Of a stretch of DNA of 64,000 bases, positions 5,934-48,402 are shown piece by piece. The notes under the pieces are model-generated. The model saw nothing but the letters and a program-made list of their open reading frames with translations. It made no database searches and was not told the DNA's origin. Origin of the DNA: an uncultured Bacillota bacterium (GTDB lineage Bacteria; Bacillota_I; Bacilli_A; RF39; UBA660); NCBI GenBank assembly GCA_946622285.1, contig CAMOPK010000001.1:41343-105342 (forward strand), written 5' to 3'. The position numbers and the translations under genes were made by a program. Each line of letters begins with the position of its first letter. Position 1 is the first letter of the stretch.

Positions 5934-6437
5934 TTATATCTCCTTTGAATAATAATTGACTATAACTTCTGTTCCATCTGGATAAGTATCAGTTGATGTT
6001 TTTAGATATGTTGTAAAGCCATATTTAAAATAAATCATCATATTCTTTACTTCACATGGTTCAACCCCTAAAGTTACTTTTTTATAACCTCTTTTTTTAA
6101 GATCTTCAATCATGAACTTAAATAACTTACTGAAGTATCCTTGGCCTTGATATTCTTCAATTACACGAAACGCTTCTAAATAAGCTGTATCTTTATCGGC
6201 TAAACCATTTCCATTTTGAACATCACTTGTATCAAATATTGCAGTTGTTTCAGCAATTATTTTACCATCTAAGACTCCATGATAAACAACACTTATACCT
6301 TTTTCTACTCTATCAAAAGCATTCTTTTTCCAGGTGATCCAATTATCTTTATCACTAGCTTTATTTATTTCATAATCCCACTTTATTTCCATTTCAGGAA
6401 TAGTCGCGATTTTGCAAATATATTCCATAGGTCTCAC
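5934..6437 (-). CDS. GNAT family N-acetyltransferase
   Basis: 167 aa; acetyl-CoA-binding motif RVIEEYQGQGYFSKLFKFMIEDLKKRGY. Confidence 0.65.
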   Translation of the reverse strand: MRPMEYICKIATIPEMEIKWDYEINKASDKDNWITWKKNAFDRVEKGISVVYHGVLDGKIIAETTAIFDTSDVQNGNGLADKDTAYLEAFRVIEEYQGQGYFSKLFKFMIEDLKKRGYKKVTLGVEPCEVKNMMIYFKYGFTTYLKTSTDTYPDGTEVIVNYYSKEI

Positions 6438-6477
6438 CTTTAGACATTATAACAAAAAAGAAGCAGATTTACTACTT

Positions 6478-8214
6478 CTAACTTAATTTTTTATAATCAA
6501 TTTTACCAATTTTAGTAGTTGGAAGTTTCTCTCTGAATTCATATTCAGCTGGCCACTTATATTTTGGTATGTTACTTTCACAATATTTCTTGATTTCTTT
6601 TTCAACTTCTTTTGTTAACTCAATATCTTTTTTAAGCACAATTACAGCTTTAGGAACTTCCCCTTTTACTTTATGCTTCATTGCAACAACTATTGCTTGA
6701 TCAACATATTTATGTTTACTAATAATACTTTCAAGTTCAAGTGGATAAATATTATATCCATTTGAAATAATCATTCTTTTTAAACGTGATTGATAATGTA
6801 AAACTCCATCTTTACTCATGTAGCCTAGGTCTCCAGTATGAAGCCAAGTCTTGCCATCATAGTGAGTTCTTAAAACTTCTGAAGTTTCCTTTTCCTGATT
6901 AATGTAACCTAACATTACAGATGGGCCTGTTACACATATTTCACCAATTGTTCCAAGTTCTAGTTCAATATCAGTATTTGGTTCAAATATCTTGATAATA
7001 TTATCTGGATTAGGTATACCAATATTATCAATATCTTTAACACTTTCACATGTAGCTGAAATAAATGCAGTTGCTTCAGATAATCCGTATCCTATCTGAA
7101 TATGTGCCAAAGATCCACAATCTCTGAAATAATTAATTGTATTTTCTTTCAATTCTTTAGGTAAATAATCTCCACCACTTAATATTACTTGAACACTCTC
7201 AAAGCTATTTCTTCCAAGTTTCTTATTTTTTATTATATAATTTAACATACTTGGAATAACAGGTAATAGATTAGGTTTTTTATCCTTGATTACCTTATTT
7301 AACTTATGAACATCAATCTTAGGTATTAAAATGCACTTTAATCCTATTGCAAGTGGTACATGAATACAAACACAAAGACCAAATCCATGAAAGATTGGTA
7401 AAGCCGATAAAATAGAATTACCAGCTTTAGCTTCTGGGCAAACAGCTTCACATTGAGCAGCAATTGAATTAAAGCAAAGATTTGAAAGAACAACACCTTT
7501 ATTTTTACCAGTTGTTCCACCGCTATAAATTATTATAGCCGGACTATCTTGACTACGATTGACATGAGTCTCAATTAAAGAAGTATCATTCTTTAAAAAG
7601 TCAATCCATCTAATAACATTGTCATTGTAATGCATGTTCTTGCGATTTTTTAAAGTATACAAAAGTTTCATGATAGCATCCATACTATTACATACTTCAC
7701 ATACTATTAAATGTTTGATTTTTAGATCTTTTACTTTCTCATATGTAACATCAGTTGTAATTAAAATTGTTGAATTTGTTTCCTTCATTGCTTCTTCAAT
7801 CTCAGCTGATGTTGAGATTGGATGGATGATATTACAAATAGCCCCTATTTTATTAACTGCATATATTGTAAATATTGCTTCAGGCATATTAGGCATACAA
7901 ATAGTTACGCATTCATTTTCAACTACTTTTAAATTTTTCAAAGAAATTGCAACTTGATCAATATTTTTAATTAATTCAGTATAACTATATTCGATTCCAA
8001 AATATTCCAAAGCTGAGTTATTTGGATATTTAATACTTGTATCTTTAACAATATCGTACATTGAGCCATTGTAATAACTTAAATGTTCTGGCATACGATC
8101 ATAATATTTTAACCAAGGTTTTTCATCATTTTGTTTAATACTATTTACTTTATTTATTATTTTATTTATATAATCATTTACTATTCCCATATATAAAACC
8201 TTTCTAATAAACAT
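6478..8214 (-). CDS. AMP-dependent synthetase/ligase (acyl-CoA synthetase family)
   Basis: AMP-binding motif IIYSGGTTGKNKGVVLS, GYGLSEA and TGDLGYMSKDGVLHYQSRLKRMI. True start may be the second Met (8190), which has a better RBS. Confidence 0.8.
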   Translation of the reverse strand: MFIRKVLYMGIVNDYINKIINKVNSIKQNDEKPWLKYYDRMPEHLSYYNGSMYDIVKDTSIKYPNNSALEYFGIEYSYTELIKNIDQVAISLKNLKVVENECVTICMPNMPEAIFTIYAVNKIGAICNIIHPISTSAEIEEAMKETNSTILITTDVTYEKVKDLKIKHLIVCEVCNSMDAIMKLLYTLKNRKNMHYNDNVIRWIDFLKNDTSLIETHVNRSQDSPAIIIYSGGTTGKNKGVVLSNLCFNSIAAQCEAVCPEAKAGNSILSALPIFHGFGLCVCIHVPLAIGLKCILIPKIDVHKLNKVIKDKKPNLLPVIPSMLNYIIKNKKLGRNSFESVQVILSGGDYLPKELKENTINYFRDCGSLAHIQIGYGLSEATAFISATCESVKDIDNIGIPNPDNIIKIFEPNTDIELELGTIGEICVTGPSVMLGYINQEKETSEVLRTHYDGKTWLHTGDLGYMSKDGVLHYQSRLKRMIISNGYNIYPLELESIISKHKYVDQAIVVAMKHKVKGEVPKAVIVLKKDIELTKEVEKEIKKYCESNIPKYKWPAEYEFREKLPTTKIGKIDYKKLS

Positions 8215-8294
8215 TTTTTATTATATCATAAATTGCACTTCTTTTTTAACAAAAATGCACTATTAACATATTATCACATAATTAAAAGCAAGAA

Positions 8295-9068
8295 TTACCT
8301 ATCTTGCTTTTTTTCCTTAAAATTAAATATTTTCTTTCTTTTCAATGTTATAGAACTAATATATGCAGTTATTGGAATAATCATAATTGATCCAATGAAA
8401 GAAATTAATAATTGAATTACTTCTTGATCAAATGCTTTATAGTTTAAAACATATTCAAAAGTTGCACCTCGATGCCACAAGAAGAATCCTATGAAATTGG
8501 CAATAATTGCAAAGTAAAGTGTATTTATCGTCGTTGACATAATATCTCTACCAACATTCATTCCTGACTTAAATAATTCTTTACTATTTAAATGTTGATT
8601 ATTTTCTAACACTTCATTCATAGCAGAACTTATTGAAATAGATGTATCAATTATAGTACCAATAATACATATTAAATACATTCCAATCATGACATCTATC
8701 ATATTTGTTCCAATATCATATGAATATCCACCAATAGCTTCAAGAGATTCCATTGAGAATCCTTGAATGTTACCTCTTTTAACAATTATAAATATGAGAG
8801 TAAATATAAATAGTAAAACTATCATTATTGATACAAATGAAGTCTTTGTTTTAATATTGACTCCATTGATAATAAATAATGTTGAAAGAGTCGCAAGCAT
8901 ACAAATAATTATTGAAAGAATTATTGGATTAAGTCCAGACTTCATTAATAATAAATATAGTATTATTAAAAATATGCCTAGATAAAGAGTTATATATGTT
9001 TTAAATCCTCTACTTCTTCCAATTATTAATAATAATACTAAAAGAGTTATAGATAATAATGTTATCAT
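8295..9068 (-). CDS. YibE/F-family polytopic membrane protein
   Basis: 257 aa, ~7 TM; motif IDTSISISSAMNEVLE is shared with the upstream paralogue. The two genes overlap by 4 nt. Confidence 0.45.
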   Translation of the reverse strand: MITLLSITLLVLLLIIGRSRGFKTYITLYLGIFLIILYLLLMKSGLNPIILSIIICMLATLSTLFIINGVNIKTKTSFVSIMIVLLFIFTLIFIIVKRGNIQGFSMESLEAIGGYSYDIGTNMIDVMIGMYLICIIGTIIDTSISISSAMNEVLENNQHLNSKELFKSGMNVGRDIMSTTINTLYFAIIANFIGFFLWHRGATFEYVLNYKAFDQEVIQLLISFIGSIMIIPITAYISSITLKRKKIFNFKEKKQDR

Positions 9069-10159
9069 TCTTGCACCTCCTTTTTAGAAGGTTTTAAAAT
9101 ATGTATTGCTATAAATAACGATATGGGTATTGCAAGAACAATACTTATAGAACTTGTAAATACAGCTATTAAATCTACTTCACCATAAAACGTTAAAGCA
9201 TCAAATAGTTTCATATTATTTTTGATTGCAAGAAAAACCATTGGAACAATTGGAGTATAACAAGTATAAAGCATAACATTAGTCATTGTTCCAACTATAT
9301 CTTTTGATATTTCTCTTCCAGATTTAATTAAAGCTGATTTTTTTATTTTAGGATCTTTTTCAATTAACTCATTTAAAGATGATGAAATAGTAATTGAGAT
9401 ATCCATTATAGCTCCAAGTCCGCATAATAAAATTGTGACATAAAAGAAATTTTCATAATCATATACTGCTTCAATATATTCCATTGACCAAATAGATAAT
9501 TCCCCACCATATATTTTAACAATTAAAAATGCTAAACCAAATGATATAAAGAGTGAAGCAATTGAAGATATAATTGCTGATAATGTTTTTTTACTTTTAC
9601 CATTAGTAATAAAAAGTGATAAAACTATAAATAATACTGATACTCCTATATAAAGTAATAATAGATTTAAAGTAGTAAACTTTTTTTGAAAAATGAATAT
9701 TGCTATAGCAGATACTATAATATTTATGAAAAAGCTTATTAAAGTCTGAACACCCTTCTTACCGGCTACTAAAATAATGGAATCAATGAATAATACGAGT
9801 AAAATAACTAAATATTTATCTCTTTTAACGCCAATAAGTTCATTAACTTCACCTGTCTTTGACATCTCAATCAATAATTCGTTTCCTTTTTCGACTATAT
9901 CTCCATAAACTCCTGTTTTAGAAACTAAATTATTTATTTTTATTTCTTTACCTTTATATTTCCCGTTTTTTATAATACCTTTAATTTCTTGGTTATAATA
10001 AGTTTCCTTAAACATTTCAGAATTTTTAGTACCATTCTTAACTTCAGTTACTTTCATAATTGGAGTTTTATATAAAAAGTGATCATTATATACAAATATA
10101 ATACTTACTAGTGAAAATAGTATTAAAATCATTATTTCTATTTTAAATTTTTTACTCAT
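9065..10159 (-). CDS. YibE/F-family membrane protein with N-terminal extracytoplasmic domain
   Basis: Start reassigned to MSKKFKIEIM (RBS GGTGA 4 nt upstream). Motif MDISITISSSLNELIE is paralogous to the downstream gene. Confidence 0.45.
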   Translation of the reverse strand: MSKKFKIEIMILILFSLVSIIFVYNDHFLYKTPIMKVTEVKNGTKNSEMFKETYYNQEIKGIIKNGKYKGKEIKINNLVSKTGVYGDIVEKGNELLIEMSKTGEVNELIGVKRDKYLVILLVLFIDSIILVAGKKGVQTLISFFINIIVSAIAIFIFQKKFTTLNLLLLYIGVSVLFIVLSLFITNGKSKKTLSAIISSIASLFISFGLAFLIVKIYGGELSIWSMEYIEAVYDYENFFYVTILLCGLGAIMDISITISSSLNELIEKDPKIKKSALIKSGREISKDIVGTMTNVMLYTCYTPIVPMVFLAIKNNMKLFDALTFYGEVDLIAVFTSSISIVLAIPISLFIAIHILKPSKKEVQE

Positions 10160-10270
10160 CTTATCACCATACAATATTAATTCTATCATATATTTTAGTA
10201 TTTTTACATTTTTTTGATTTTTTAGAAAAGAAAAAGCATAGACATTGTCTACACTTTTTTGGTTAGTTTA

Positions 10271-10927
10271 TTACTTTCCTGTTTTTGATTTTAGTTTGTC
10301 ATAATACATGGCATTAGCAACAGTCATGTATGGGAATAACCAAATCATGATTAACCCAAATGTTGGAACAATAAGTAAACACCATCCAATGAAACTTAAT
10401 CCAAATACAAAGTATTCCCACTTATGTCCCTTCATCATTTCACGACATTTCTTTAAGGCATCAACACCTGACAAATTAGTATCAAGAATTACATAATTTA
10501 CAAGTGCATAAGCTAAAGCTAAGATAATTCCAGGAATTACGAATAATACCATTCCTAGACCGATTAAAAGACCACCGATAAGATTTGCAACTAATAAGTT
10601 AACCCATTTTTCTTTTAATGTTTTAATAATTACATCATGGTTGAACTTACCTGTTCTTACAAAATCAATGATATATTTCAAGTAACAAGCACCTAAAATT
10701 GCACTCACCAAAGTAACAACTGTTGAACCTGCTGTTTGTATAGGTGTCATCTTAAACATATCTAGACTAAAATTGTTGAAGTCAAAAGTATTTATATCAA
10801 CCTTTGGGCTAAAGAAACTTGATAAAACTGATGTAATAATTGAAATACATATATATGGCCACCAAATATTCCATTTGTTTCCCCTAATCTTTTCTTTTGC
10901 TGCTTCCTTAATCTCCGCTCTGTTCAT
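10271..10927 (-). CDS. DUF975-family integral membrane protein
   Basis: 218 aa; N-terminus MNRAEIKEAAKEKIRGNKWNIW is typical of DUF975. RBS GGAGG. Terminator hairpin at ~10228-10262. Confidence 0.5.
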   Translation of the reverse strand: MNRAEIKEAAKEKIRGNKWNIWWPYICISIITSVLSSFFSPKVDINTFDFNNFSLDMFKMTPIQTAGSTVVTLVSAILGACYLKYIIDFVRTGKFNHDVIIKTLKEKWVNLLVANLIGGLLIGLGMVLFVIPGIILALAYALVNYVILDTNLSGVDALKKCREMMKGHKWEYFVFGLSFIGWCLLIVPTFGLIMIWLFPYMTVANAMYYDKLKSKTGK

Positions 10928-10977
10928 AAACTTACCTCCTATTCCTAAGATAATTATATTTCATTAATCAATAAAAA

Positions 10978-11790
10978 TCAACTTTTCAAAAATGAAATTA
11001 TTTTAAAGATTATAAAAATTATTAAATTAACAATTACAATTGTTGCTCCAGTTGGAGTTGCAACTAAATATGAAATAATTAATCCAATTATAAATGCTAT
11101 TGTTGAAACAATTACACTAGAAATTACTACGCTTTTGAATGTCTTAAATATTTGCATCGATGATAAGGTTGGAAAAATAATCAAACTTGAAATTAGAAGT
11201 GCTCCCATTAAACGCATTCCAAGTACTACTACAACTGAGCATAAACTTGCAAAAATAATATTATAAAGATTTGTTTTAATGCCAATTGATTTTGCAAATT
11301 TTTCATCGAATGTTAGTGCAAATATTTTATTGTATGAAAATATGTATAATGCTATTACAATTATTGAAAGTATTACACTTATAATTACATCTGATTTACT
11401 AATTGCTAAAATACTACCAAATAAATAATTATTAATATCTGTATTTACTCCAAATAAGGAAACTACAAATGTTCCAATTGCAAGTGAACTTGATGATATT
11501 AAGGCAATTGCCGCATCTCCGTTTATTTTACTATTTTCATTTAATTTAAGAATAAAGAATGAAACAATTATAACAATTGGCAAAGCAAACTCAAGTGGTG
11601 CAAAATGTAAAACCGAGGCAATGGCAAAAGCTCCAAAACCAACGTGAGAAAGTCCATCCCCAATCATTGAGTTTTTCCTTAATACTAGTGAAACCCCTAC
11701 TAAAGATGCACATAAACTTATTAAAAATCCTGCTATAAGAGCTCTTATCATAAATGATAATGAAAACATTTCAATTAAACTATTTATCAT
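10978..11790 (-). CDS. znuB: ABC-3 family metal (Zn/Mn) importer permease
   Basis: 270 aa, 8-9 TM, ABC-3 permease family; overlaps the ATPase gene by 11 nt. Confidence 0.75.
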   Translation of the reverse strand: MINSLIEMFSLSFMIRALIAGFLISLCASLVGVSLVLRKNSMIGDGLSHVGFGAFAIASVLHFAPLEFALPIVIIVSFFILKLNENSKINGDAAIALISSSSLAIGTFVVSLFGVNTDINNYLFGSILAISKSDVIISVILSIIVIALYIFSYNKIFALTFDEKFAKSIGIKTNLYNIIFASLCSVVVVLGMRLMGALLISSLIIFPTLSSMQIFKTFKSVVISSVIVSTIAFIIGLIISYLVATPTGATIVIVNLIIFIIFKIISFLKS

Positions 11791-12460
11791 GATGAATCCT
11801 CCTTACAAAATCAGTTGTTGATCCATAGAAAATTTCATCTTCACGAAGTGATAATATTTTATTACCTATTAGGTTCCCATGATCTAAGTCATGAGTAATC
11901 ATGATAATTGTAATTCCTTCTTTATTTAAATTTGAAATCATTTCATAAAGATTTTCTTTTGATTTAGTGTCTAAATTATTTGATGGTTCATCTAAAATAA
12001 GTAATTTTGATGTTGCACACAAACTTCTTGCAAGTAATACTTTTTGTCTTTGGCCTCCAGATAAATCAGCAAAACTTTTATTTTTTAAATTTTCAATATG
12101 CAATAATTTTAAATTATTTAAAGCTTTTTCTTTGGCTTCTTTTGAATAGAATGGTTTAAATCCAGAATTATTTAAAGTTCCTGATAAAACTATTTCCAAA
12201 ACTGAAGCTGGAAAGTTTGCATCGACTTTTGTTTCTTGAGGCATATAACCAATGAAGTTTTGTTTTAAATTGTTATACTTGATTTTACCTTTTAATGGCT
12301 TTATAAGGCCTAAAATACCTTTTATTAAGGTTGATTTCCCAGAGCCATTTGGTCCAACCACACAGACAAAATCTCCCTCTTCAATTTTAATATCAATGTT
12401 TCTTAAAACAATGTGTTTTTCATATCCTAATGTCACATTATTTAATTCAATAAGACTCAT
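11780..12460 (-). CDS. znuC: ABC-3 family metal importer ATP-binding protein
   Basis: Walker A GPNGSGKSTL, signature LSGGQRQKVLLARSL, Walker B LILDEPSNNLD. Confidence 0.85.
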   Translation of the reverse strand: MSLIELNNVTLGYEKHIVLRNIDIKIEEGDFVCVVGPNGSGKSTLIKGILGLIKPLKGKIKYNNLKQNFIGYMPQETKVDANFPASVLEIVLSGTLNNSGFKPFYSKEAKEKALNNLKLLHIENLKNKSFADLSGGQRQKVLLARSLCATSKLLILDEPSNNLDTKSKENLYEMISNLNKEGITIIMITHDLDHGNLIGNKILSLREDEIFYGSTTDFVRRIHHDK

Positions 12461-13377
12461 TAATTTAAAGCCTCCTTTAAAGCAACAATATTATTTTTCA
12501 TAATATCAATATAACCAATATTTTTATCAAAATCAGTTTTAGAAATATTATGTGCACTATTAAATTCTAATACTTTTGCTCCTGTTTCTTTTGCTATTGC
12601 TTCTGCTATTTTTTTATTTGAAAGTTCTATATGAAAAATAACTGGTATTTTATCTTCTTTAACTTTATTAATTAAAAACGATATTGTCTTAGCACTTGCT
12701 TCACTCGCTTCAGAGCATCCAGGAAAAGCTGCATAGTAAGTTAAACCATATTCTTCTACAAAATATCTAAATGGGAAACGATCTCCAAATATGATTTCTT
12801 TTCTTTTAGCATTTTTCACTACTTTTTTTATTTCATTATCAATGCTTTCAAGTTCTTTAATATATGAATCTCTATTTGATTCATATAGTTCTTTATTTGG
12901 TTCATCAATAGATATAACTTCATCTGTTAATTTTTCAGTTATTTTAATTGCATTAACTGGACTAGTCCATACATGTTCATCAAGTTCAGTTTCAGCACTT
13001 TCTTCAGCTTCTTCTTCCATTCCTTCAGTTATTTCTTCTTCATATGTATCAACTAAATCCATAAGTTTTACTATTTTAGTTTTAGTTGGATCAATATCAA
13101 TTAAAATATCATCAATCCAAGCGTCTGATTCGCCACCAACATAAATAAAAATCTTACTATTTTTTATTTTTAAAATATCTTGAGGAGTTGGTTCAAAGTC
13201 ATGAATCTCACTACCTGGCTTTAATAACATTTCAACTTCAATATTAGAATCTTTTGTAATTGCTCTTGCAAAATCATAACTTGGAAAATTAGTCGCAACA
13301 ATAGTATATTCTTGACTATTTTTATTACATCCAGTTATTAAAAATAACATAATTATAACTACTAATATTTTTTTCAT
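12460..13377 (-). CDS. znuA: Metal-binding lipoprotein of ABC-3 system (ZnuA/TroA fold) with acidic flexible loop
   Basis: Start placed at MKKILVV (RBS GGAAGAGAG); lipobox LITGC. Acidic loop EEEITEGMEEEAEESAETELDEH. Metal specificity (Zn vs Mn) is not decidable from sequence. Confidence 0.75.
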   Translation of the reverse strand: MKKILVVIIMLFLITGCNKNSQEYTIVATNFPSYDFARAITKDSNIEVEMLLKPGSEIHDFEPTPQDILKIKNSKIFIYVGGESDAWIDDILIDIDPTKTKIVKLMDLVDTYEEEITEGMEEEAEESAETELDEHVWTSPVNAIKITEKLTDEVISIDEPNKELYESNRDSYIKELESIDNEIKKVVKNAKRKEIIFGDRFPFRYFVEEYGLTYYAAFPGCSEASEASAKTISFLINKVKEDKIPVIFHIELSNKKIAEAIAKETGAKVLEFNSAHNISKTDFDKNIGYIDIMKNNIVALKEALN

Positions 13378-40216: not shown

Positions 40217-40465
40217 AATATCAACCCTTTCTAAACAAAAAAACATTTCATCCAAAGGACGAAATGTTCGTGGTACCACCTTAATTTATAGTATTGCTAC
40301 TATCTCAAAGTCTTAATGCGACTAACAATATATCTTACTCTTAGTTCTGACATATAACTCCCAAGCTACCTTCAAATAGGTTTCACTAATGAATGCTTTC
40401 AGTCGGTGACATTCAATTCCTAATAGTTACTAACTACTTTACTCCTCTTGTTCTTCGTTTTTTTA
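40217..40465 (-). promoter_or_regulatory. T-box riboswitch leader of valS (specifier GUC, T-box AAGGUGGUACCACG, terminator AACAUUUC...GAAAUGUU + U7), with consensus promoter TTGACA-N16-TATAAT upstream
   Basis: Own reverse complement: ...AATGTCACC (Val GUC specifier) ... AATTAAGGTGGTACCACGAACATTTCGTCCTTTGGATGAAATGTTTTTTTG. Confidence 0.8.
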
Positions 40466-40504
40466 TAATTATAATCATTTAAATAATTTTGTCAATACAT
40501 AAAA

Positions 40505-40581
40505 TGGCGCCTCAAGTAGGACTCGAACCTACGACCCCTTGATTAACAGTCAAGTGCTCTAACCGACTGAGCTATTGAGGC
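40505..40581 (-). tRNA. tRNA-Asn (anticodon GTT)
   Basis: Folded by hand: acceptor GCCTCAA/TTGAGGC, D arm GCTC..GAGC, anticodon loop CTGTTAA, T arm GTAGG-TTCGAGT-CCTAC, encoded CCA; 77 nt. Confidence 0.9.
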
Positions 40582-40612: not shown

Positions 40613-41158
40613 TTACAATAACATTTCTTTTATAGCTAACCAATCTTTAGCTCTTTCAATACCCATTTTTTCTAATTCTTCATCACTTATTGCTTCATTA
40701 TGATATGCAGTAAAAAGAATTTTTCTTTTGGCATTTTTTAAATTATCAGTTCTATCATCTATTTTAATATCAGTTTGTAATAATGCTTTATTAGATAAAA
40801 ATATATATTGACTTGGTTTAATAAATGGAAATTCTTTTACTAAAAATTCATGTTTTTGTTTTAATATATATCCACATTCTTCTGGTATTTCACGATATAT
40901 ATATGATGTTCCTATATATAAATCATATTTCTTAGACAATTCTTCTATTACTTCTTTTGCATTTGGTGCTATATGGCAATATTCATAAATGTTTTTATCT
41001 TTAAACCATTTAAAGAATGCTTCTTTATCTGGAAGAATATCTTGCATATAAAAATTCTTGAAATCACTTTCCACATAGTTTGTTCCCATATATTCATTCA
41101 AGAGGGCTATAAAGCCCCCTTGAACCATTACATCATCCATATCAATCATTAATGTCAT
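40613..41158 (-). CDS. 5'(3')-deoxyribonucleotidase (NT5C/YorS-like HAD phosphatase)
   Basis: HAD motif I IDMDDVMV and C-terminal KIDDRTDNL, typical of the NT5C family. Start ATG overlaps the upstream stop (ATGA). Confidence 0.7.
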   Translation of the reverse strand: MTLMIDMDDVMVQGGFIALLNEYMGTNYVESDFKNFYMQDILPDKEAFFKWFKDKNIYEYCHIAPNAKEVIEELSKKYDLYIGTSYIYREIPEECGYILKQKHEFLVKEFPFIKPSQYIFLSNKALLQTDIKIDDRTDNLKNAKRKILFTAYHNEAISDEELEKMGIERAKDWLAIKEMLL

Positions 41159-44100
41159 TTTTTATCACCAATAACCTTATTTGGTCCTCTCGGAACCAAT
41201 CTTCTTTGATATACAGGTTGAGGGTTAGGATTACCTTCACCAAAAATTGTTGCTTCTTCAGTCATGCAACTTTGAATAAAAGATTCTAGTCCCATTTCTC
41301 TTACTACTGGATTTTGAATTTGATATTGGTCTAAGAATTCTGTTCCAATAGTTTCTATAACTATTCTTCCATCTTCCAAATATTTTTCAACAACAAATAG
41401 TGGTTGACTACTATAGCCTAAGTTTTGTTCAAACCCACTTTGTCCAGATCCTGAACCTGTAATTGTAATTAAAGTATTATTAATTACAGAGGTTTCAAAT
41501 ATATGATAATGAGCTGCTATTACTTTATCAATTCTTGGCAAGTTTGGTGCCATTCTATTCAACCATTTTGAAGCACCTATAGTTGGAGATGACCCTCCAC
41601 CTTTAAAACTATGTGAATAGATATTATTATAACCATTTATTGTTCTAAAACAATATGGTGCATTAACAAAGTCCCCCTTACCGTTTACCAAAAATTCAGT
41701 TAATGTTAAATCAATGTCACTACCTGTAACAGCTTTTAAAGTATCTAACTCTTGCCTTAAAAGTTCAATTTCATCAAAACCTTTATGGTCCCAATCACTG
41801 TTTTCTTCGTGATTTCCTCTTAACAAATCAGTAAACTCAAGATTGACAATTTTTGTTAATTTGCTTCTTATTTCAGTTTCATATGGTTTTAACGCAGGTG
41901 GTAATTTTAAATCAACTTTCTTATAATCAATACCTCTTTTAACACGTTCAATGCTTCCATATAAACCTTCTGATTGTTCTATTAAACCTGTTTGAGCCAA
42001 ATGTGTAATTATTTCTTGTGAAGTTCTACAATCTATTCTTTCGGTCCTAAACCCATCTCTTACTACTCCAAATCCATTTCTCATGTATGGTCTTAGTAAT
42101 TTATTATGGCTTACCATTTGTTGTGTCATAGCTGCAGCTCCAATATGTCTTGCTTCATTTGGATACTTTCCATAGTTATGTCCTTGTTGTAAATCACCAT
42201 TAAAAATTATACCAGTTGGATTGCATTCATAGAATAAATAATCTAAAAATTTAACAACATATTCTGGTCTTTCTGCTAATGAACCAATATGCAAATCATT
42301 TAAATGCCCAATAGTTTTCTGTTCGTATCCTTTGCCAGTTCTTTGGACTTCATCCATTACTTCTCTTACTCGTTTATAATATGGAATAATCTCCATTCTT
42401 TCACGAATATCACCCGTAATCATCCAACCACCAGGATAATTTGGTCTTGCTGTTACTTGAGTAACTCTTTTATATGTTGGATCTTGAAGGACATGTTCTT
42501 TAATACCTGCAAGTAATTCAGGATGTTCCATATATTTACTATCATCAATCATAGATGGAACATTCATTGTAAGTTCATCGCCTTCATAAGCAATAGACAT
42601 AAATGGTTGTTTTGCATCTACAAATAATCTTGGAATACCAGTCACTTTGGCTTGTTCTACAACGTTAGATTGGTATAATCTTAAGTTTTTCATAACGTTA
42701 GATCTACCTTTTGATGAGCGCCCATTTGAAGCAATTAAGTTAACTGCTATTGTTGAATCATCTTGCCCATATTGATGAATGTCAGAATATAATACTCTGA
42801 AGGCTGGATTATCTTTTAAAAATTCTGGTTTAAGTCTAACATCATCACCTAATGGTAATCCTTCTTTATATCTCTTTATTGCATGTAATACTCTTGATAC
42901 ATTTGTTTTTGTTTCATCATCTGTATATAATCCAGCAAGGTCTTCACCACTACGAATCATATAAGGAATTAATTCTTGAATAATGATTGGACGTACCCAG
43001 TCAAATTTACTCTTCAAATCTTCTCTTTTTAAGAAGTCGTTTCCTTTTACGCCTTGTTCTCTTATATAAATTTTAAATATATCTTGGTATAATTGAAATT
43101 CTTCATCACCCATTTGATAAATAACTTTAATACCTGCTTCATTTAATTTATCAACTACTCTTCTAGCTGCTTGAAGACGTGATGCGATAGTTTCGTATGT
43201 TGGATCTGTTAACAATCTTCTTGATGTTTGGTTATGATAATAAGTTGAATAAATTAAACCTTGAATATAAACTGTATCAACTTTATTAGCAATTGCCATA
43301 TCAATCATATTATTAGTATCTACTTCACTATGATAGATATTACCAAAATTAGCTCCTGCCATGAACATCAATAATGGATATCCTTGACGTGCTTCAATTG
43401 GTGAAAGATTCTTTAGTTCACGCCTATTACTTCTTTCTTCAGCAATGAAAGATGCTCCAATACTATCAAGAGTTTTAACGTCCAAGGTTGCTGTACTATT
43501 GGTAACGAAATAACTCCTATTACGCGGATTATTTCGATATAACATAATATAATCTTGAACATATTTTTTAAGAAGTGGATATGCTTCTTTTACTTGATTC
43601 ATATGTGGAATAAATGCCAAATCAATTGCAAATTGATTCTCTTTTAAAGAATCTGATATAAATCCAGCTCTTGTTAAAATTTCTTCTAATTTTTTAACAC
43701 CTTTTTTAGTGCTAATATCTATTCCAGATACAAATTTAACATAACTTCCTTTAGCCGGAAATAGACTTTTATATCCCGAGAATATTGCATCGTTAGCAAG
43801 TATGTGATGCTCACCATTTTTCTTAATATCTTCAGTTAAATAATAAAGTAAGTCATGAAAATTTTTACCTCTAGAAAGATATGCAGTAATATGTGAAACT
43901 AATTTTGTAAATACTTCATATTCTCTTTTATCTAATTTATCTTTTACATGCTTAGTTAATAATAGTGCATGTGCAACTGGATCGTACGTCTCATTTTCAG
44001 CATATCTTCTAATCTTGGCCAAATTGAACTCATCTGTTAATAATTGTTCAACCTGAGCATCTGTAATAAATGACTTTTCAATTTCACGATCAATATCTTC

Positions 44101-44622
44101 TTTTCTTTGTTTATATAATAATTTTAACTGTTCTTTTTTTTCTTTTGCATCAAGTTCACTAAAATCTTTATTTTTCGATAAAACTCTTTCAATATATGAA
44201 TCATATAGTGAAGGCCTTAATGCTTGTATTATGTCTGCTCTAGAGAGTCCGAATAATTTAGTTATATATTCTTCTTTGGTAGCACATGCTTTCATCAACA
44301 ATGTATTAAAAATAGCATTTTCAACATTAGCATGTTTACGATCAAAGAATAAAATATATGGTTTAGAAGTACAAACTCTTTCTGCCATACCAGCTAAAGA
44401 TGCTGTAACATAAAAACCTCCTACATGACCAATCATCATAGGTGCTTTACCATATGAATATTTGCTTTCAAATTCTTCTGCTACTTCAGTAAAGTCATCT
44501 GACGAACAAAGCTTTACTCGTTCACTTTTAGAAATTTCAGAATCAAAAGACATTTCTTGATTGTCCATGTAAGAGATAAAATGAGTTTCTCTAAATCTTT
44601 TTAAATCTTGACTTCTTGCCAT
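41155..44622 (-). CDS. Large cytoplasmic protein (1155 aa): ~750-aa N-terminal region of unknown function + C-terminal calcineurin-like metallophosphoesterase domain
   Basis: MPE motifs GHLNDLHIG (D-x-H), FNGDLQQGHNY (GDxx), LLRGNHEE (GNHE) and AAHYHIF in the last ~380 aa. No TM, no P-loop. Structured 5' UTR with promoter TTGAAA-N16-TACAAT and RBS GGGGGGAG. Confidence 0.5.
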   Translation of the reverse strand: MARSQDLKRFRETHFISYMDNQEMSFDSEISKSERVKLCSSDDFTEVAEEFESKYSYGKAPMMIGHVGGFYVTASLAGMAERVCTSKPYILFFDRKHANVENAIFNTLLMKACATKEEYITKLFGLSRADIIQALRPSLYDSYIERVLSKNKDFSELDAKEKKEQLKLLYKQRKEDIDREIEKSFITDAQVEQLLTDEFNLAKIRRYAENETYDPVAHALLLTKHVKDKLDKREYEVFTKLVSHITAYLSRGKNFHDLLYYLTEDIKKNGEHHILANDAIFSGYKSLFPAKGSYVKFVSGIDISTKKGVKKLEEILTRAGFISDSLKENQFAIDLAFIPHMNQVKEAYPLLKKYVQDYIMLYRNNPRNRSYFVTNSTATLDVKTLDSIGASFIAEERSNRRELKNLSPIEARQGYPLLMFMAGANFGNIYHSEVDTNNMIDMAIANKVDTVYIQGLIYSTYYHNQTSRRLLTDPTYETIASRLQAARRVVDKLNEAGIKVIYQMGDEEFQLYQDIFKIYIREQGVKGNDFLKREDLKSKFDWVRPIIIQELIPYMIRSGEDLAGLYTDDETKTNVSRVLHAIKRYKEGLPLGDDVRLKPEFLKDNPAFRVLYSDIHQYGQDDSTIAVNLIASNGRSSKGRSNVMKNLRLYQSNVVEQAKVTGIPRLFVDAKQPFMSIAYEGDELTMNVPSMIDDSKYMEHPELLAGIKEHVLQDPTYKRVTQVTARPNYPGGWMITGDIRERMEIIPYYKRVREVMDEVQRTGKGYEQKTIGHLNDLHIGSLAERPEYVVKFLDYLFYECNPTGIIFNGDLQQGHNYGKYPNEARHIGAAAMTQQMVSHNKLLRPYMRNGFGVVRDGFRTERIDCRTSQEIITHLAQTGLIEQSEGLYGSIERVKRGIDYKKVDLKLPPALKPYETEIRSKLTKIVNLEFTDLLRGNHEENSDWDHKGFDEIELLRQELDTLKAVTGSDIDLTLTEFLVNGKGDFVNAPYCFRTINGYNNIYSHSFKGGGSSPTIGASKWLNRMAPNLPRIDKVIAAHYHIFETSVINNTLITITGSGSGQSGFEQNLGYSSQPLFVVEKYLEDGRIVIETIGTEFLDQYQIQNPVVREMGLESFIQSCMTEEATIFGEGNPNPQPVYQRRLVPRGPNKVIGDKK

Positions 44623-44767
44623 ATTTTCTCCCCCCTAGAATTGACTTTGTGTCCTAATACAAAATAATTGATTAAGTAATAATAGAGCACCACTCTCTAC
44701 CATTATCTTAAACTCTATTATCATTGTATCATTTTTACTCAATATTTCAAACAATTTTAAGCAAAAT

Positions 44768-44799: not shown

Positions 44800-46101
44800 C
44801 TAAGCATTGATATCATAGATACCTAAATATTCTTCTAATGTTATATTTTTTGTCATTATTTCAGTTGCTATTTCAACACCAACATAGCGAACATGCCACG
44901 GTTCATAACCATATCCAGTAATAGCTTCTTTATACTGTGGATATCTGATTATAAAACCGTATTTATGAGCGTTTTCTCTTAACCAAATACCTTCTGGCAT
45001 GACACCTAATTTAACAGAACAAAGTCCAATATCAAATGCAAGTCCTGTTTGATGTTCTGAGTGACCAGGTCTAGCAGATCTTTTATCAGCAAATTCTTGT
45101 CCTTTATTTGTTTTATATCGATTATATAAGGCATCTTGAGTTGAATAACTACGATATGCCGATTTAGTTGGCAAACTATGTCCTTCTTTTTTTGCATCTG
45201 CTTGCAATTTTTCAAGTGCTGCTTTAGCTTCAGTACTATCGACTTGGAAATTTTTAGGAATTGCATATTTTTTATTAACAATCAAAATATCTTTAATATA
45301 AGTTGGTCCTGAAACAATTTCAGTATAACCTTTATTTAGATCATCTTGATTATATACTTTTATTTTTCTTATTGCTGTAGCTTCATTTCCAGCATTATCC
45401 TTTACTTTATATGTTACTTCAAATACTTGATGTTTACTTGTATCAACATTTGAAATAACTTCAATTTTAGAAGTAATATCACCATCACAGTTATCGGTAG
45501 CTTTGGCCCCAAATTCTTTATATGTTGAATTTAGTTCAAATGTCAAAATATCAGAATTAACTAATGTTATTTCAGGTTTAGTACTATCCTTACTATCAAG
45601 TATTCTTACAACTTCTTTCTTGTTGCCACTTTTATCTTTAACTGAGTAAATGATTTTATCACTTTTTTTAGTAACAACTACATCTTTGGTCAAATCACCA
45701 TCAACGTTATCAATTGCAGTATATCCTTCTTCAGTATATTCTTTTCCACATGTACTCACCTTAGAATCCCCTTTAAGTGTTATTTCAGGAGATATTAAAT
45801 CAGCAACTATAACTGTTCTAGTAGCTTTCCTTGTTGAATTTCCATGCTTTATTTCATAGGTTATTTTATATTCACCTAATTTGTTAGTATCAACTTTATT
45901 AGTCACTTTTATTTCTTTGGTTAAATCTTCTTTTAAATATGAAGCTTTAGCTCCTTGATCATTATATTTTTCCCCAATTGAAATTTTAATTGTTGCATTA
46001 CCATTTAATTTAAGTTTCAAAAATGGATTATATATTATAATGGTTGCTGCTATTAAAACTATTTCAAGTATTATTGTAATAATAAGTGGTTTTGTTTTCA
46101 T
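44800..46101 (-). CDS. Membrane-anchored D-Ala-D-Ala carboxypeptidase (peptidase M15/VanY family) with Ig-like stalk domains
   Basis: M15 motifs SEHQTGLAFDIG and EPWHVRY; N-terminal TM; Ig-like repeats as in the C39-like proteins. Start at MKTKPL (RBS GGGTGAGGGT). Confidence 0.7.
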   Translation of the reverse strand: MKTKPLIITIILEIVLIAATIIIYNPFLKLKLNGNATIKISIGEKYNDQGAKASYLKEDLTKEIKVTNKVDTNKLGEYKITYEIKHGNSTRKATRTVIVADLISPEITLKGDSKVSTCGKEYTEEGYTAIDNVDGDLTKDVVVTKKSDKIIYSVKDKSGNKKEVVRILDSKDSTKPEITLVNSDILTFELNSTYKEFGAKATDNCDGDITSKIEVISNVDTSKHQVFEVTYKVKDNAGNEATAIRKIKVYNQDDLNKGYTEIVSGPTYIKDILIVNKKYAIPKNFQVDSTEAKAALEKLQADAKKEGHSLPTKSAYRSYSTQDALYNRYKTNKGQEFADKRSARPGHSEHQTGLAFDIGLCSVKLGVMPEGIWLRENAHKYGFIIRYPQYKEAITGYGYEPWHVRYVGVEIATEIMTKNITLEEYLGIYDINA

Positions 46102-46137
46102 ACCCTCACCCATAGATATTATAACACAAAAAAATAC

Positions 46138-46941
46138 CTATAAGGTATTTTTCATATATGAATTTATGCTTTCATATATAGCAATTAACTCTTCATTTGA
46201 AATAGCATTAAATGTTTTAGCTAATAGTTCTTCGTTTATAGATAATTCTGACACTATCTTCTTAGCTTCTCTTTGAGTTAAAGTAATATTTTTTAAATAG
46301 TTTAATCTTATAAAAGATTCTACCAAAGCATTTTTTATTTTTTTATCATCATAAAAATAAAGATTTCTAAATATGATCATTTCATCAGTTAAATCATTTT
46401 CTTTAATAGGTGTCAATCTAATCATTGATGATAATACTCTCGGTTTTGGATCAAAAGATTCTGGTAATATATCCATTATCTTTTCTATTTTGAAGAAACA
46501 ATTTGTTAACAATGACAATTTTGTAGTTTTATTTTCTAAAACATTGTTTGCAAATCTACTTCCTGTAATCATCAATATTTCTTTGAAATCACATTTTATT
46601 ATTTTATAAATAAATGGTTCAACAATACTATATGGTAGTGATGTAACAATCTTATCACAAGGTGGAATATATGTATCTAAAACACTATCAAATATAAGTT
46701 CAATATTGCCTTTTTCATATGATAAAGGAACTAAATATTTTTCTAGTCTACGATCCAGTTCAATTAAATATAGTTTTTTTACTTTATCTGCAATTAAACT
46801 TGAAATATTTCCTTTACCTGGACCCACTTCAACTATAGTGTCAGTTTTTTTCAAATTTGCTTCTTTGATAAATCTTGAAATGACTTCTTGGTCTATCAAA
46901 AAATGTTGATCTAGTTTATCTGTTTCATTGATGAATTGCAT
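46138..46941 (-). CDS. rRNA adenine N6-methyltransferase family protein (KsgA/Erm fold), divergent
   Basis: DQHFLIDQEVI, SAM motif VEVGPGKGNIS, catalytic TSLPYSIVEP. Overlaps the rel stop by 17 nt. Specifically paralogous to 62771..63916 (shared LPY[ST]I.EP). Confidence 0.55.
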   Translation of the reverse strand: MQFINETDKLDQHFLIDQEVISRFIKEANLKKTDTIVEVGPGKGNISSLIADKVKKLYLIELDRRLEKYLVPLSYEKGNIELIFDSVLDTYIPPCDKIVTSLPYSIVEPFIYKIIKCDFKEILMITGSRFANNVLENKTTKLSLLTNCFFKIEKIMDILPESFDPKPRVLSSMIRLTPIKENDLTDEMIIFRNLYFYDDKKIKNALVESFIRLNYLKNITLTQREAKKIVSELSINEELLAKTFNAISNEELIAIYESINSYMKNTL

Positions 46942-48376
46942 ATTTTTTCCTCATTCCTCTTCGAATTGATACTTGAGCTTGTACTGTTGTTGATATATGT
47001 TCCCATCCAGGTAATGGTCCATGTGGATACTCAGATAGTATTAAATGTACGCGATCTCCTTGTTCAAAAACAGTACTTACGTCAACTTGTTGTCCATTTA
47101 CAAAAACTGAGTCTAAGCGGTCCCCAATCTCCTGTCCACGACTATATGCATAGTCAATGGCTGTTGATCCAGCTGAAACAAACACTTGATGTTCTCCGTC
47201 ATATATAGCTACTTTATCACCAATAACGTTTTGTTCAAAGCCTTGAACAAAATCTTGACTATTTTTCATAATGCGGCTTAATTCTTTTACGGATTGAATA
47301 AAATGATATTTATCCCTTAATATCTCTTGCATAACATCAACTGCTTTTCCTTGAAATAAATCCCAGTAAGCAGTAAGACCTTGAAGATTAATTTTTTCCA
47401 TTTCATGTGTTCTTATCTGCATTTGAACAGCCACTAATTCTGGTCCGAAAACTGTCGTATGTATAGAACTATACATATTTGGTTTTGGTTGGCTTATATA
47501 ATCTTTAAATGTTTTAGGCATTGGTGGATATAAACTATGTACTAGCCCAAGTGCATTATAACATTCTTTTTTACTTTCTACTAGTAGTTTTATTGCAAGA
47601 AAGTCATGAAGATTTTCAATTTTTCCGCCATCCTTTATTCTTTGATAAACACTATAAACACTTTTAATTCTTAATTTTAAAGTATGTGGAACTTTTTCAT
47701 CTTCCAATAACCTATGAATATCAATCATCATTTGGTTGGTACTTAATTGCGTTTGGTTAGAATAATCACTGATAATTTTACTTGTTTCAACGTAACCCTC
47801 TGGATTCAAAAATTTGAACGAAAGATCTTCAAGTTTTCGTCTTAAAACTTCAGCCCCAATATATCTTGCAAGTGGTGCATAAAATTGCATCGTTTCTGCT
47901 GCTTTTTTAATTCTTTTTTCTTGGCTTTTATATTGAAGCGTTAAAAGATTATGTAAACGGTCTGCAAGCTTGATTACGACAATTCTAGCATCTTTACTAA
48001 TTCCTAAAATGATTTTATTTTTATTAGCATAATCACGTTCTGTTTTTGACTTAAAATCAACTTGGGTCAAATTAGTAACTCCATCAACTAATTCGGCAAT
48101 TTTAGGATTAAATTCTCTAGATATTTGTTCTAAAGTAACATCACAGTCCTCAACTACATCATGCAAAAGTCCAGCACATACTGTATCACGATCAGCATGC
48201 ATATTTGCTAAAATCCATGCGACTGCTAGTGGATGAATAATATATGGTTCCCCACTTTCGCGATGTTGCCCTTTATGACATTCTTCTGCAAACCTATAAG
48301 CCTTAGTTATGATTTCAACTTCATCAGGATTATAAGCTTTAACGAGGTTAATAAATTCTTCAAATGTTACTTGCAT
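46925..48376 (-). CDS. rel: Bifunctional (p)ppGpp synthetase/hydrolase Rel, short form (HD-Synth-TGS, no ACT/RRM C-terminus)
   Basis: HD motif HPLAVAWIL...LLHDVVED; synthetase YSSIHTTVFGP...VAVQMQIRTHEM; TGS-like C-terminus; ~480 aa versus ~730 for canonical Rel. Start at MQVTFEEF (RBS GGTGG). Confidence 0.75.
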   Translation of the reverse strand: MQVTFEEFINLVKAYNPDEVEIITKAYRFAEECHKGQHRESGEPYIIHPLAVAWILANMHADRDTVCAGLLHDVVEDCDVTLEQISREFNPKIAELVDGVTNLTQVDFKSKTERDYANKNKIILGISKDARIVVIKLADRLHNLLTLQYKSQEKRIKKAAETMQFYAPLARYIGAEVLRRKLEDLSFKFLNPEGYVETSKIISDYSNQTQLSTNQMMIDIHRLLEDEKVPHTLKLRIKSVYSVYQRIKDGGKIENLHDFLAIKLLVESKKECYNALGLVHSLYPPMPKTFKDYISQPKPNMYSSIHTTVFGPELVAVQMQIRTHEMEKINLQGLTAYWDLFQGKAVDVMQEILRDKYHFIQSVKELSRIMKNSQDFVQGFEQNVIGDKVAIYDGEHQVFVSAGSTAIDYAYSRGQEIGDRLDSVFVNGQQVDVSTVFEQGDRVHLILSEYPHGPLPGWEHISTTVQAQVSIRRGMRKKYAIHQ

Positions 48377-48402
48377 AATATCCACCAATTCTTTGATAGA
48401 AA

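Follow-up and report, generated by a model that had tools for sequence, protein, structure and literature searches.

We report here on two adjacent genes in a window of 64,000 nucleotides from an uncultured Bacillota bacterium (GTDB lineage Bacilli_A; RF39; UBA660; contig CAMOPK010000001.1, positions 41,343 to 105,342 of the forward strand). The first is a large open reading frame (ORF) encoding a protein of 1155 amino acids (41155..44622) and the second, which follows it, encodes a 5'(3')-deoxyribonucleotidase of the NT5C-type HAD class with 181 amino acids (40613..41158). Both were taken from the ORF list and lie on the minus strand, as does every gene in this part of the window. By its fold and motifs the large protein belongs, as a divergent member, to the metallophosphoesterase (MPE) superfamily, and its link to the corresponding Pfam family is transitive. 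On balance we are inclined to regard it as a stand-alone cytoplasmic member of an undescribed family, in which a degenerate (pseudo-) MPE fold is combined with an active MPE phosphodiesterase that may act on nucleic acids in a housekeeping role. The nucleotidase gene is a lineage-specific neighbour of the large gene and not a conserved partner, and the two form neither a conserved module nor a defence system.

The large protein and its sequence family

Searches of the 1155-residue protein against Pfam, NCBIfam, PADLOC, PHROGs and the PDB sequences gave no significant match. Profile searches of all PDB chain sequences, for which the family profile, separate profiles of the three regions described below and a more diverse N-terminal profile were used, also returned nothing significant, the matches to bacterioferritin and NDUFA6 being noise, and Pfam searches with the N-terminal and middle regions of each family member gave noise only. 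No test that was run placed the protein in the SbcD/Mre11, DP1, UshA, LpxH or defence families, and a literature search found no description of the family. Its homologues form 78 clusters (90% identity) that are 42-88% identical and nearly all of 1125-1195 amino acids; all are unnamed or 'hypothetical' and all come from uncultured metagenome-assembled genomes from the rumen, the gut and digesters, labelled 'Bacilli', 'Mollicutes' or 'Erysipelotrichaceae'. No transmembrane segment or signal peptide was found and there is no hydrophobic segment. Judged from its sequence the protein is cytoplasmic, as an earlier note on this DNA had said.

An AlphaFold2 model of the full protein, with the family alignment as input, had a predicted local distance difference test score (pLDDT) of 85.4 and a predicted template modelling score of 0.73. 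When this model was compared with the PDB by Foldseek, the matches were exclusively proteins of the MPE fold, with a probability of ~1.0. The best was DP1 of the archaeal polymerase PolD (E 1e-5), and the others included the Leptospira protein 6ulo, UshA, Vps29, Mre11, the Pol alpha B subunit, purple acid phosphatase and SbcD. Foldseek gives no query ranges, and the attribution of these matches to domains rests on the positions of motifs.

The C-terminal domain

The C-terminal region (residues 763-1155; 41158..42336, minus strand) is supported by invariant columns, by Foldseek and by a link through the distant homologue P0112, and the MPE fold within it spans residues ~765-1100. It carries the motifs D776-x-H778, G809-D810, G936-N937-H938-E939, H1004 and H1038-x-H1040, with an insert of ~115 residues between motifs II and III. 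The alignment of 46 homologues bears out the metal ligands that had been read from the single sequence: D776, D810, N937, H938, H1004, H1038 and H1040 are invariant, as are all the other motif residues except H778. At this motif-I position the consensus of the 46 sequences is Gln, which is also found in 15 of the 17 distant homologues. The signature of the domain can be written as D-x-[Q/H]-x-G-S...G-D-x-x-x-G-x-N-Y...G-N-H-E-x-N-[S/T]...H...[G/A]-H-x-H, and its retention in the Bacilli, Patescibacteria, DPANN and viral-contig homologues examined makes catalysis more plausible than a role in structure alone.

The earlier note had called this MPE domain unambiguous, which claims too much for its sequence. 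Pfam Metallophos (PF00149) gave 15.6 bits (E 0.022) on the whole protein and 18.9 bits (E 0.0021) on the C-terminal domain alone, in both cases under the gathering score of 21.5 bits, and it was found at E<=1 in just 6 of 22 family members. P0112 reaches 29.1 bits with the same model, above the gathering score, and it is because of this transitive link and of the fold matches that we assign the domain to the MPE superfamily.

Outside the MPE fold, the protein ends in a conserved basic tail of low pLDDT (residues ~1120-1155; 41158-41260), with the pattern ...Y-[QR]-R-[KR]-[LI]-x...P-N-K-x-I-G-P-K, which is common to the Bacilli and DPANN homologues. This tail may be a docking peptide; a clamp-binding or PIP-like motif was not evident in it.

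The middle and N-terminal regions

The middle region (residues 406-762; 42337..43407, minus strand) is described from fold matches, column identity and hhalign. A model of residues 1-762 alone, that is without the C-terminal domain, had a pLDDT of 86.1, and its Foldseek matches in the PDB were again MPE folds (DP1, 6ulo, Mre11, Vps29, Rv0805, LpxH and GpdQ). In BFVD there were 32 matches at E<=1e-3, annotated as metallophosphatase, 'DNA polymerase II small subunit' or SbcD, and phage proteins with the first two of these annotations stood with DP1 among the top matches of this model. Both models have an MPE-like beta-alpha-beta pattern at residues 415-750, residues 1-405 being mostly helical with a few strands, and this pattern together with the matches of the shorter model points to the middle region as a second MPE fold.

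In this second fold (residues ~410-750) the positions of the motifs DxHxG, GD and GNHE are occupied by GANFGN, QG-LIY and MGDEE. Comparison by hhalign of Bacilli-only profiles of the middle and C-terminal domains found no internal duplication. Wider profiles gave a colinear and weak alignment (P 6.5e-4, probability 11%), treated as supportive only, in which D776 is paired with G423 and H778 with N425, and the bridging aspartate D810 is deleted in the middle domain. From the models the middle domain is best described as a pseudo-MPE, with the fold and without the canonical metal-ligand motifs, yet no other part of the protein is as well conserved: the columns of the middle region have a mean identity of 71%, those of the C-terminal region 63% and those of the N-terminal region 56%. 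The statement of the earlier note that the first ~750 residues are without any recognisable motif is therefore only partly sustained, as no sequence family is recognised there but residues ~410-750 have a degenerate MPE fold. The structure prediction that the note had proposed for this part gave an MPE fold for the middle region and assigned none to residues 1-405.

The N-terminal region (residues 1-405; 43408..44622, minus strand) is described from its modelled secondary structure. It has an alpha/beta core, with strands at residues 62-66, 89-94, 295-299 and 333-337 and a hairpin at 355-376, and a helical insert at 116-285. Pfam and PDB sequence searches with these residues gave no match. The region is kept in the Bacilli, DPANN and viral-contig homologues, is absent from the shorter proteins P0112 and P0173 of the Patescibacteria clade, and for the most part does not align in the other distant relatives examined. 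The Gly-rich loop after strand 1, the invariant Asp with which strand 2 ends and the terminal beta-hairpin had raised the suspicion of a class-I methyltransferase or Rossmann-like core. This candidate was rejected: an hhalign comparison with the KsgA-like protein of the window was null, and the lone methyltransferase match in BFVD had a probability of 0.21.

Distribution of the family

In an exhaustive search with a profile, 1.84 billion cluster representatives yielded 183 proteins at E<=1e-3. Outside the Bacilli core the homologues, of 920-1250 amino acids, are of two kinds. The first clade includes a protein labelled Patescibacteria as well as P0112, and the gene of one of its members is flanked by rpsB-tsf and a cytidine deaminase gene, on a contig of 373 kb. 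The second includes a protein labelled Candidatus Woesearchaeota, the contig of which can be considered archaeal since it also carries genes for Pelota and RFC. Among the distant homologues are P0081 and P0232 (loci L034-L036), from DPANN, and P0112, P0173 and P0116 (L032, L033 and L118), from Patescibacteria-like contigs. This distribution over Bacilli and Patescibacteria with reduced genomes and a host- or community-dependent life, and a DPANN archaeon, suggests a function fitting that lifestyle.

A full-length homologue of 1042 amino acids is encoded by the IMG/VR contig UViG_3300005512_005684 (331 kb; L031/L037, locus positions 6077-11138), with an hhalign probability of 100%, an E-value of 1.8e-65 and 979 aligned columns. 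It is the only contig of IMG/VR with a homologue and the sole viral occurrence that was found, 'viral' being the label of the database. The gene directly before it, which overlaps it by 14 nucleotides, encodes a GHKL ATPase of 648 amino acids (Pfam HATPase_c_3) that matches the PHROG 'topoisomerase II large subunit' (E 1.2e-5), and the homologue itself has a weak match to a PHROG annotated as 'exonuclease'. A tblastn search of the 50,697 phage genome records of INPHARED found no match to the large protein.

The nucleotidase gene and the layout of the pair

The 181-residue protein matches the Pfam family NT5C (PF06941) over its full length (E 5e-17, 62.8 bits, cut-off 24.8), and the HAD residues D6, D8, T84, K124, D134 and D135 are invariant among six homologues. 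The NT5C family comprises the 5'(3')-deoxyribonucleotidases of the human cdN/mdN type. The protein of the window resembles this family along its whole length and keeps the HAD DxD, T, K and DD residues, nothing notable being different. With a match above the cut-off and HAD motifs I-IV present, its sequence makes it clear that this is a genuine and ordinary NT5C/HAD 5'(3')-deoxyribonucleotidase, and on this point the earlier note was right.

The TGA stop of the large ORF and the ATG start of the NT5C gene share the four letters ATGA, as had been noted before; at the locus of the closest relative (L004) the overlap is replaced by an 8-nucleotide spacer. A promoter-like site, TTGAAA-16 nucleotides (TG-extended)-TACAAT, was found by consensus scan 5' of the large ORF (44723..44750, minus strand), just downstream of the terminator hairpin of the VanY gene. 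It agrees with the consensus in 10 of 12 positions plus the TG, and the alignment with L004 shows that it is kept there, in keeping with the promoter that the earlier note had given to the pair. Between this site and the start codon lies a 5' untranslated region of ~100 nucleotides (44623..44722, minus strand), in which sequence reading and folding identified one hairpin and a strong ribosome-binding site, GGGGGGAG. The same note had taken this leader for a long structured one, which was not borne out: its folding energy of -18 kcal/mol is not significant against shuffled sequence (z -1.31) and an Rfam search gave no match.

A tRNA-Asn gene (GTT; 40505..40581, minus strand; ARAGORN, Rfam tRNA 77 bits) does lie beside the pair, 31 nucleotides 3' of the NT5C gene, and in L004 too it is found 3' of NT5C. 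The terminator that had been assigned to the pair could not be found: neither the interval from the NT5C stop to tRNA-Asn nor the sequence directly after tRNA-Asn contains an intrinsic one, and the nearest terminator-like hairpin is part of the T-box leader of valS. Because of the ATGA overlap and the absence of a terminator, the large gene and NT5C are probably co-transcribed in this lineage.

Conservation of the pair and its genomic context

The earlier note had speculated that the pair forms a coupled nucleotide-degrading module, reminiscent of anti-phage strategies, a reading that the comparison of loci and the genomic context do not support. We collected ~27 loci of large-protein homologues, six from exact-protein look-ups and 23 from a scan of one genome per GTDB species, with two duplicates. 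Among them NT5C stands beside the large gene in L004 alone. There the large protein is 83% identical to that of the window and the gene order is the same (RelA, KsgA-like, VanY, large gene, NT5C, tRNA-Asn, ValRS). Clustering of the neighbours from -3 to +3 revealed no recurrent partner of the family as a whole, synteny being limited to shallow subclades.

The opposite search was anchored on valS and covered 80 metagenomic loci with ValRS 63-100% identical. The large gene was found upstream of valS in none of the 80, and an NT5C homologue was found directly upstream of valS in four (L055, L059, L099 and L111; Pfam E 1.7e-18). These suggest a recurrent NT5C-valS neighbourhood, and since NT5C occurs there without the large gene it seems to be native to this neighbourhood and the large gene a newcomer in it. 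In L059 an ORF of 151 amino acids, with no Pfam match, lies between NT5C and valS.

The signs of a defence island are also missing from the window. PADLOC (PADLOC-DB 2.0) assigned the large protein to none of its families and NT5C only at noise level (E 0.19), and the G+C content of the pair (0.29-0.32) resembles that of its flanks. Between the window and L004 the identity of the large protein (83%) is comparable to that of its housekeeping neighbours (ValRS 90%, VanY 77%, KsgA-like 77%, RelA 67%). Together with the absence of an INPHARED match, with the common orientation of all the genes and with the housekeeping nature of the neighbours, these observations lead away from a defence island and from the anti-phage flavour of the earlier proposal. 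Elsewhere, homologues of the large gene are found among core genes, with RNase R-RimM-TrmD-L19 in L003 and with S2-Tsf in L118. Neighbours of restriction, PD-(D/E)xK or KAP type were seen in L001 (YhcG and NERD), L006 (YhcG) and L007 (Mrr and a KAP NTPase).

Comparison with known systems

The best full-model match, DP1 of PolD (6knb, 8ppt, 5ihe), is the archaeal 3'-5' proofreading exonuclease. What the large protein has in common with it is the MPE fold, which in DP1 acts on the 3' end of nucleic acids. Unlike DP1, the large protein is ~2.5 times longer, has two MPE folds and an unrelated N-terminal region, and has no DP2-like partner or PCNA-type motif that could be seen. Profile searches show no sequence similarity between the two, and the root-mean-square deviation of the superpositions is high (6.5-25 Å).

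Mre11 and SbcD (3t1i, 4tug, 5dny, 4m0v) have an MPE fold with the complete set of binuclear-site motifs, as has the C-terminal unit of the large protein. They are dimers of MPE domains, an arrangement that, by analogy, the tandem of pseudo-MPE and MPE could mimic. In contrast to them, one MPE unit of the large protein is without ligands, the SbcD/Mre11 models of Pfam and NCBIfam do not match it, and no gene for a Rad50/SbcC-like ATPase is found in the window or at the ~27 homologue loci.

Catalytically inactive MPE folds are known from Vps29 and from the B subunits of the eukaryotic polymerases Pol alpha and Pol epsilon. They are among the fold matches of the middle domain, which is similar to them in having kept the fold and lost the ligands. 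Unlike in these proteins, the inactive fold is here fused to one that appears from its motifs to be active, and it is better conserved than the rest of the chain.

The enzymes that deplete deoxynucleoside triphosphates (dNTPs) in anti-phage defence are the products of dGTPase and dCTP deaminase defence genes. Only the theme of nucleotide catabolism is common to them and to the pair: the enzyme families differ, PADLOC is null, the window offers no defence-island context and the pair is not conserved.

No counterpart of the fusion of a degenerate with an intact MPE domain was present among the curated families and solved structures searched, and the architecture, the motif-I Gln variant and the phyletic pattern matched nothing in the searched libraries and literature.

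Proposed function and alternatives

We propose that the C-terminal MPE domain, as its motifs suggest, would be an active binuclear-metal-dependent phosphodiesterase, and that the pseudo-MPE may serve as a built-in second protomer or substrate-binding partner, in the manner of the second subunit of dimeric MPE nucleases. The most likely substrate would be the end or the backbone of a nucleic acid, and the role a housekeeping one, for example in DNA or RNA repair, processing or turnover. In this lineage only, NT5C could consume deoxynucleoside monophosphates (dNMPs) released by the large enzyme, as a local link. A nucleic-acid substrate is favoured because the nearest folds are DP1 and Mre11/SbcD and because the viral-contig homologue, with its weak match to an 'exonuclease' PHROG, is next to a GHKL ATPase gene; this class of substrate, suggested by the models, is nevertheless put forward only tentatively, as fold scores cannot separate the MPE subfamilies.

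Several observations weigh against the proposal of an active, nucleic-acid-acting housekeeping enzyme. The Foldseek E-values of 1e-5 to 1e-2 indicate the MPE superfamily and not a specific nuclease subfamily, and the fold matches also include nucleotidases, phosphatases and non-catalytic MPE proteins. The Gln of motif I in most members may make the metal site atypical, and residues 1-405, to which no fold was assigned, could redefine the function. The ~27 loci showed no conserved partner of the large gene, be it a Rad50/SbcC-like ATPase or a subunit of a polymerase. The tight spacing to NT5C could reflect a functional link that is local to this lineage, and the defence-like neighbours of some distant homologues may mean an accessory role in some lineages.

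A bolder form of the same proposal would make the fused pseudo-MPE and MPE an 'intramolecular dimer' with a novel N-terminal domain, founding an undescribed family that processes nucleic acids (end resection, proofreading-like trimming or turnover) in place of multi-subunit machines such as SbcCD or Mre11-Rad50, in reduced-genome lineages of both Bacteria and Archaea and in a huge phage. We consider this form unlikely.

Somewhat less probable still is a lineage-specific salvage or catabolic operon, in which the large protein would degrade nucleic acids or oligonucleotides to (d)NMPs to be dephosphorylated by NT5C. Such a link, real here and not ancestral to the family, would help a scavenger of nucleotides with a reduced genome. 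It agrees with the likely co-transcription of the two genes and with the occurrence of the family in reduced-genome, dependent lineages (Mollicutes-like Bacilli, Patescibacteria and a DPANN archaeon), and a phosphoribosyltransferase gene is near the homologue in L005 and L033, as are genes for a cytidine deaminase and a nucleoside phosphorylase in L118. However, by a rough estimate that was not computed, neighbours of nucleotide metabolism occur at about the frequency expected by chance in small genomes, and NT5C associates with valS independently of the large gene.

We give a similarly low probability to a C-terminal MPE domain whose substrate is a phosphoprotein (phospho-Ser/Thr, for instance) or a small molecule such as a cyclic or dinucleoside nucleotide, the large N-terminal part being regulatory or targeting. 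The E-values of UshA, Rv0805, GpdQ, LpxH and purple acid phosphatase are similar to those of the nucleases, which speaks for such an activity. The arguments on the other side are each weak: the best PDB and BFVD matches are DP1-, SbcD- or Mre11-like, the viral-contig homologue, encoded after the GHKL ATPase gene, weakly matches an 'exonuclease' PHROG, and a scaffold of 1155 amino acids is unusual for a small-molecule phosphodiesterase.

A protein without catalysis, in which both MPE folds would serve only as interaction platforms, as in Vps29 or in the B subunits of eukaryotic replicative polymerases, appears very improbable. In favour of such a scaffold are the conservation of the degenerate fold, which exceeds that of the other regions, the presence of Vps29 and of the B subunits of Pol alpha and Pol epsilon in the lists of fold matches, and the Gln that most members have instead of the motif-I His. 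Against it, seven canonical catalytic or ligand residues of the C-terminal domain do not vary between Bacilli and archaea, which is hard to explain without catalysis. Least credible of all is an anti-phage module of the dNTP-depletion kind, in which the large MPE protein and NT5C would convert (d)NTPs or nucleic acid to dNMPs and these to deoxynucleosides in two steps, for although the genes overlap with no terminator between them, keep their order in L004, adjoin a tRNA gene and have a few distant homologues near restriction- or defence-like genes, the pair occurs at one of ~27 homologue loci, the overlap is lost in L004, four relatives have the valS-linked NT5C without the large gene, the large protein is null in PADLOC and evolves as slowly as its housekeeping neighbours, and the G+C content is normal.

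Flanking genes

The genes that flank the pair encode a RelA/SpoT-like protein, a KsgA-like (RrnaAD-type) rRNA methyltransferase, a VanY-type protein, tRNA-Asn and ValRS. The upstream neighbour is the VanY-type D-Ala-D-Ala carboxypeptidase (44800-46113, minus strand; Pfam E 9e-38), whose chain also carries a membrane anchor at its N-terminus and three bacterial surface Ig-like domains (PF16403, E 1.5e-44). Further upstream are the rRNA methyltransferase-like gene (46138..46941, minus strand) and the RelA/SpoT-like gene (46925..48388, minus strand), which overlap by 17 nucleotides (46925-46941) and are found in the same order in L004.

On the other side, the downstream valS gene is predicted to be controlled by a sigma-70-type site and a T-box leader. 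The consensus scan found a perfect sigma-70 consensus promoter-like site, TTGACA-16-TATAAT (40495..40468, minus strand), followed by the T-box leader (40252..40464, minus strand; Rfam RF00230, 106 bits) with its terminator hairpin (40269..40241, minus strand). The true start of valS is probably an internal ATG and not the GTG listed at 40279. In L004 a gene call annotated as NUDIX (12426-12953) lies between tRNA-Asn and valS, in the position of the T-box leader of the window.

Significance

The pair itself is no new system, as the nucleotidase is ordinary and stands beside the large gene by a local accident. Of more interest is the large protein, which is long and strongly conserved and which at the sequence level is covered by no curated family or solved structure. 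If it is a nuclease, it would do in a single chain what the dimeric MPE nucleases do with two, and its description would help to annotate conserved genes that are now 'hypothetical' in rumen, gut and groundwater metagenomes.

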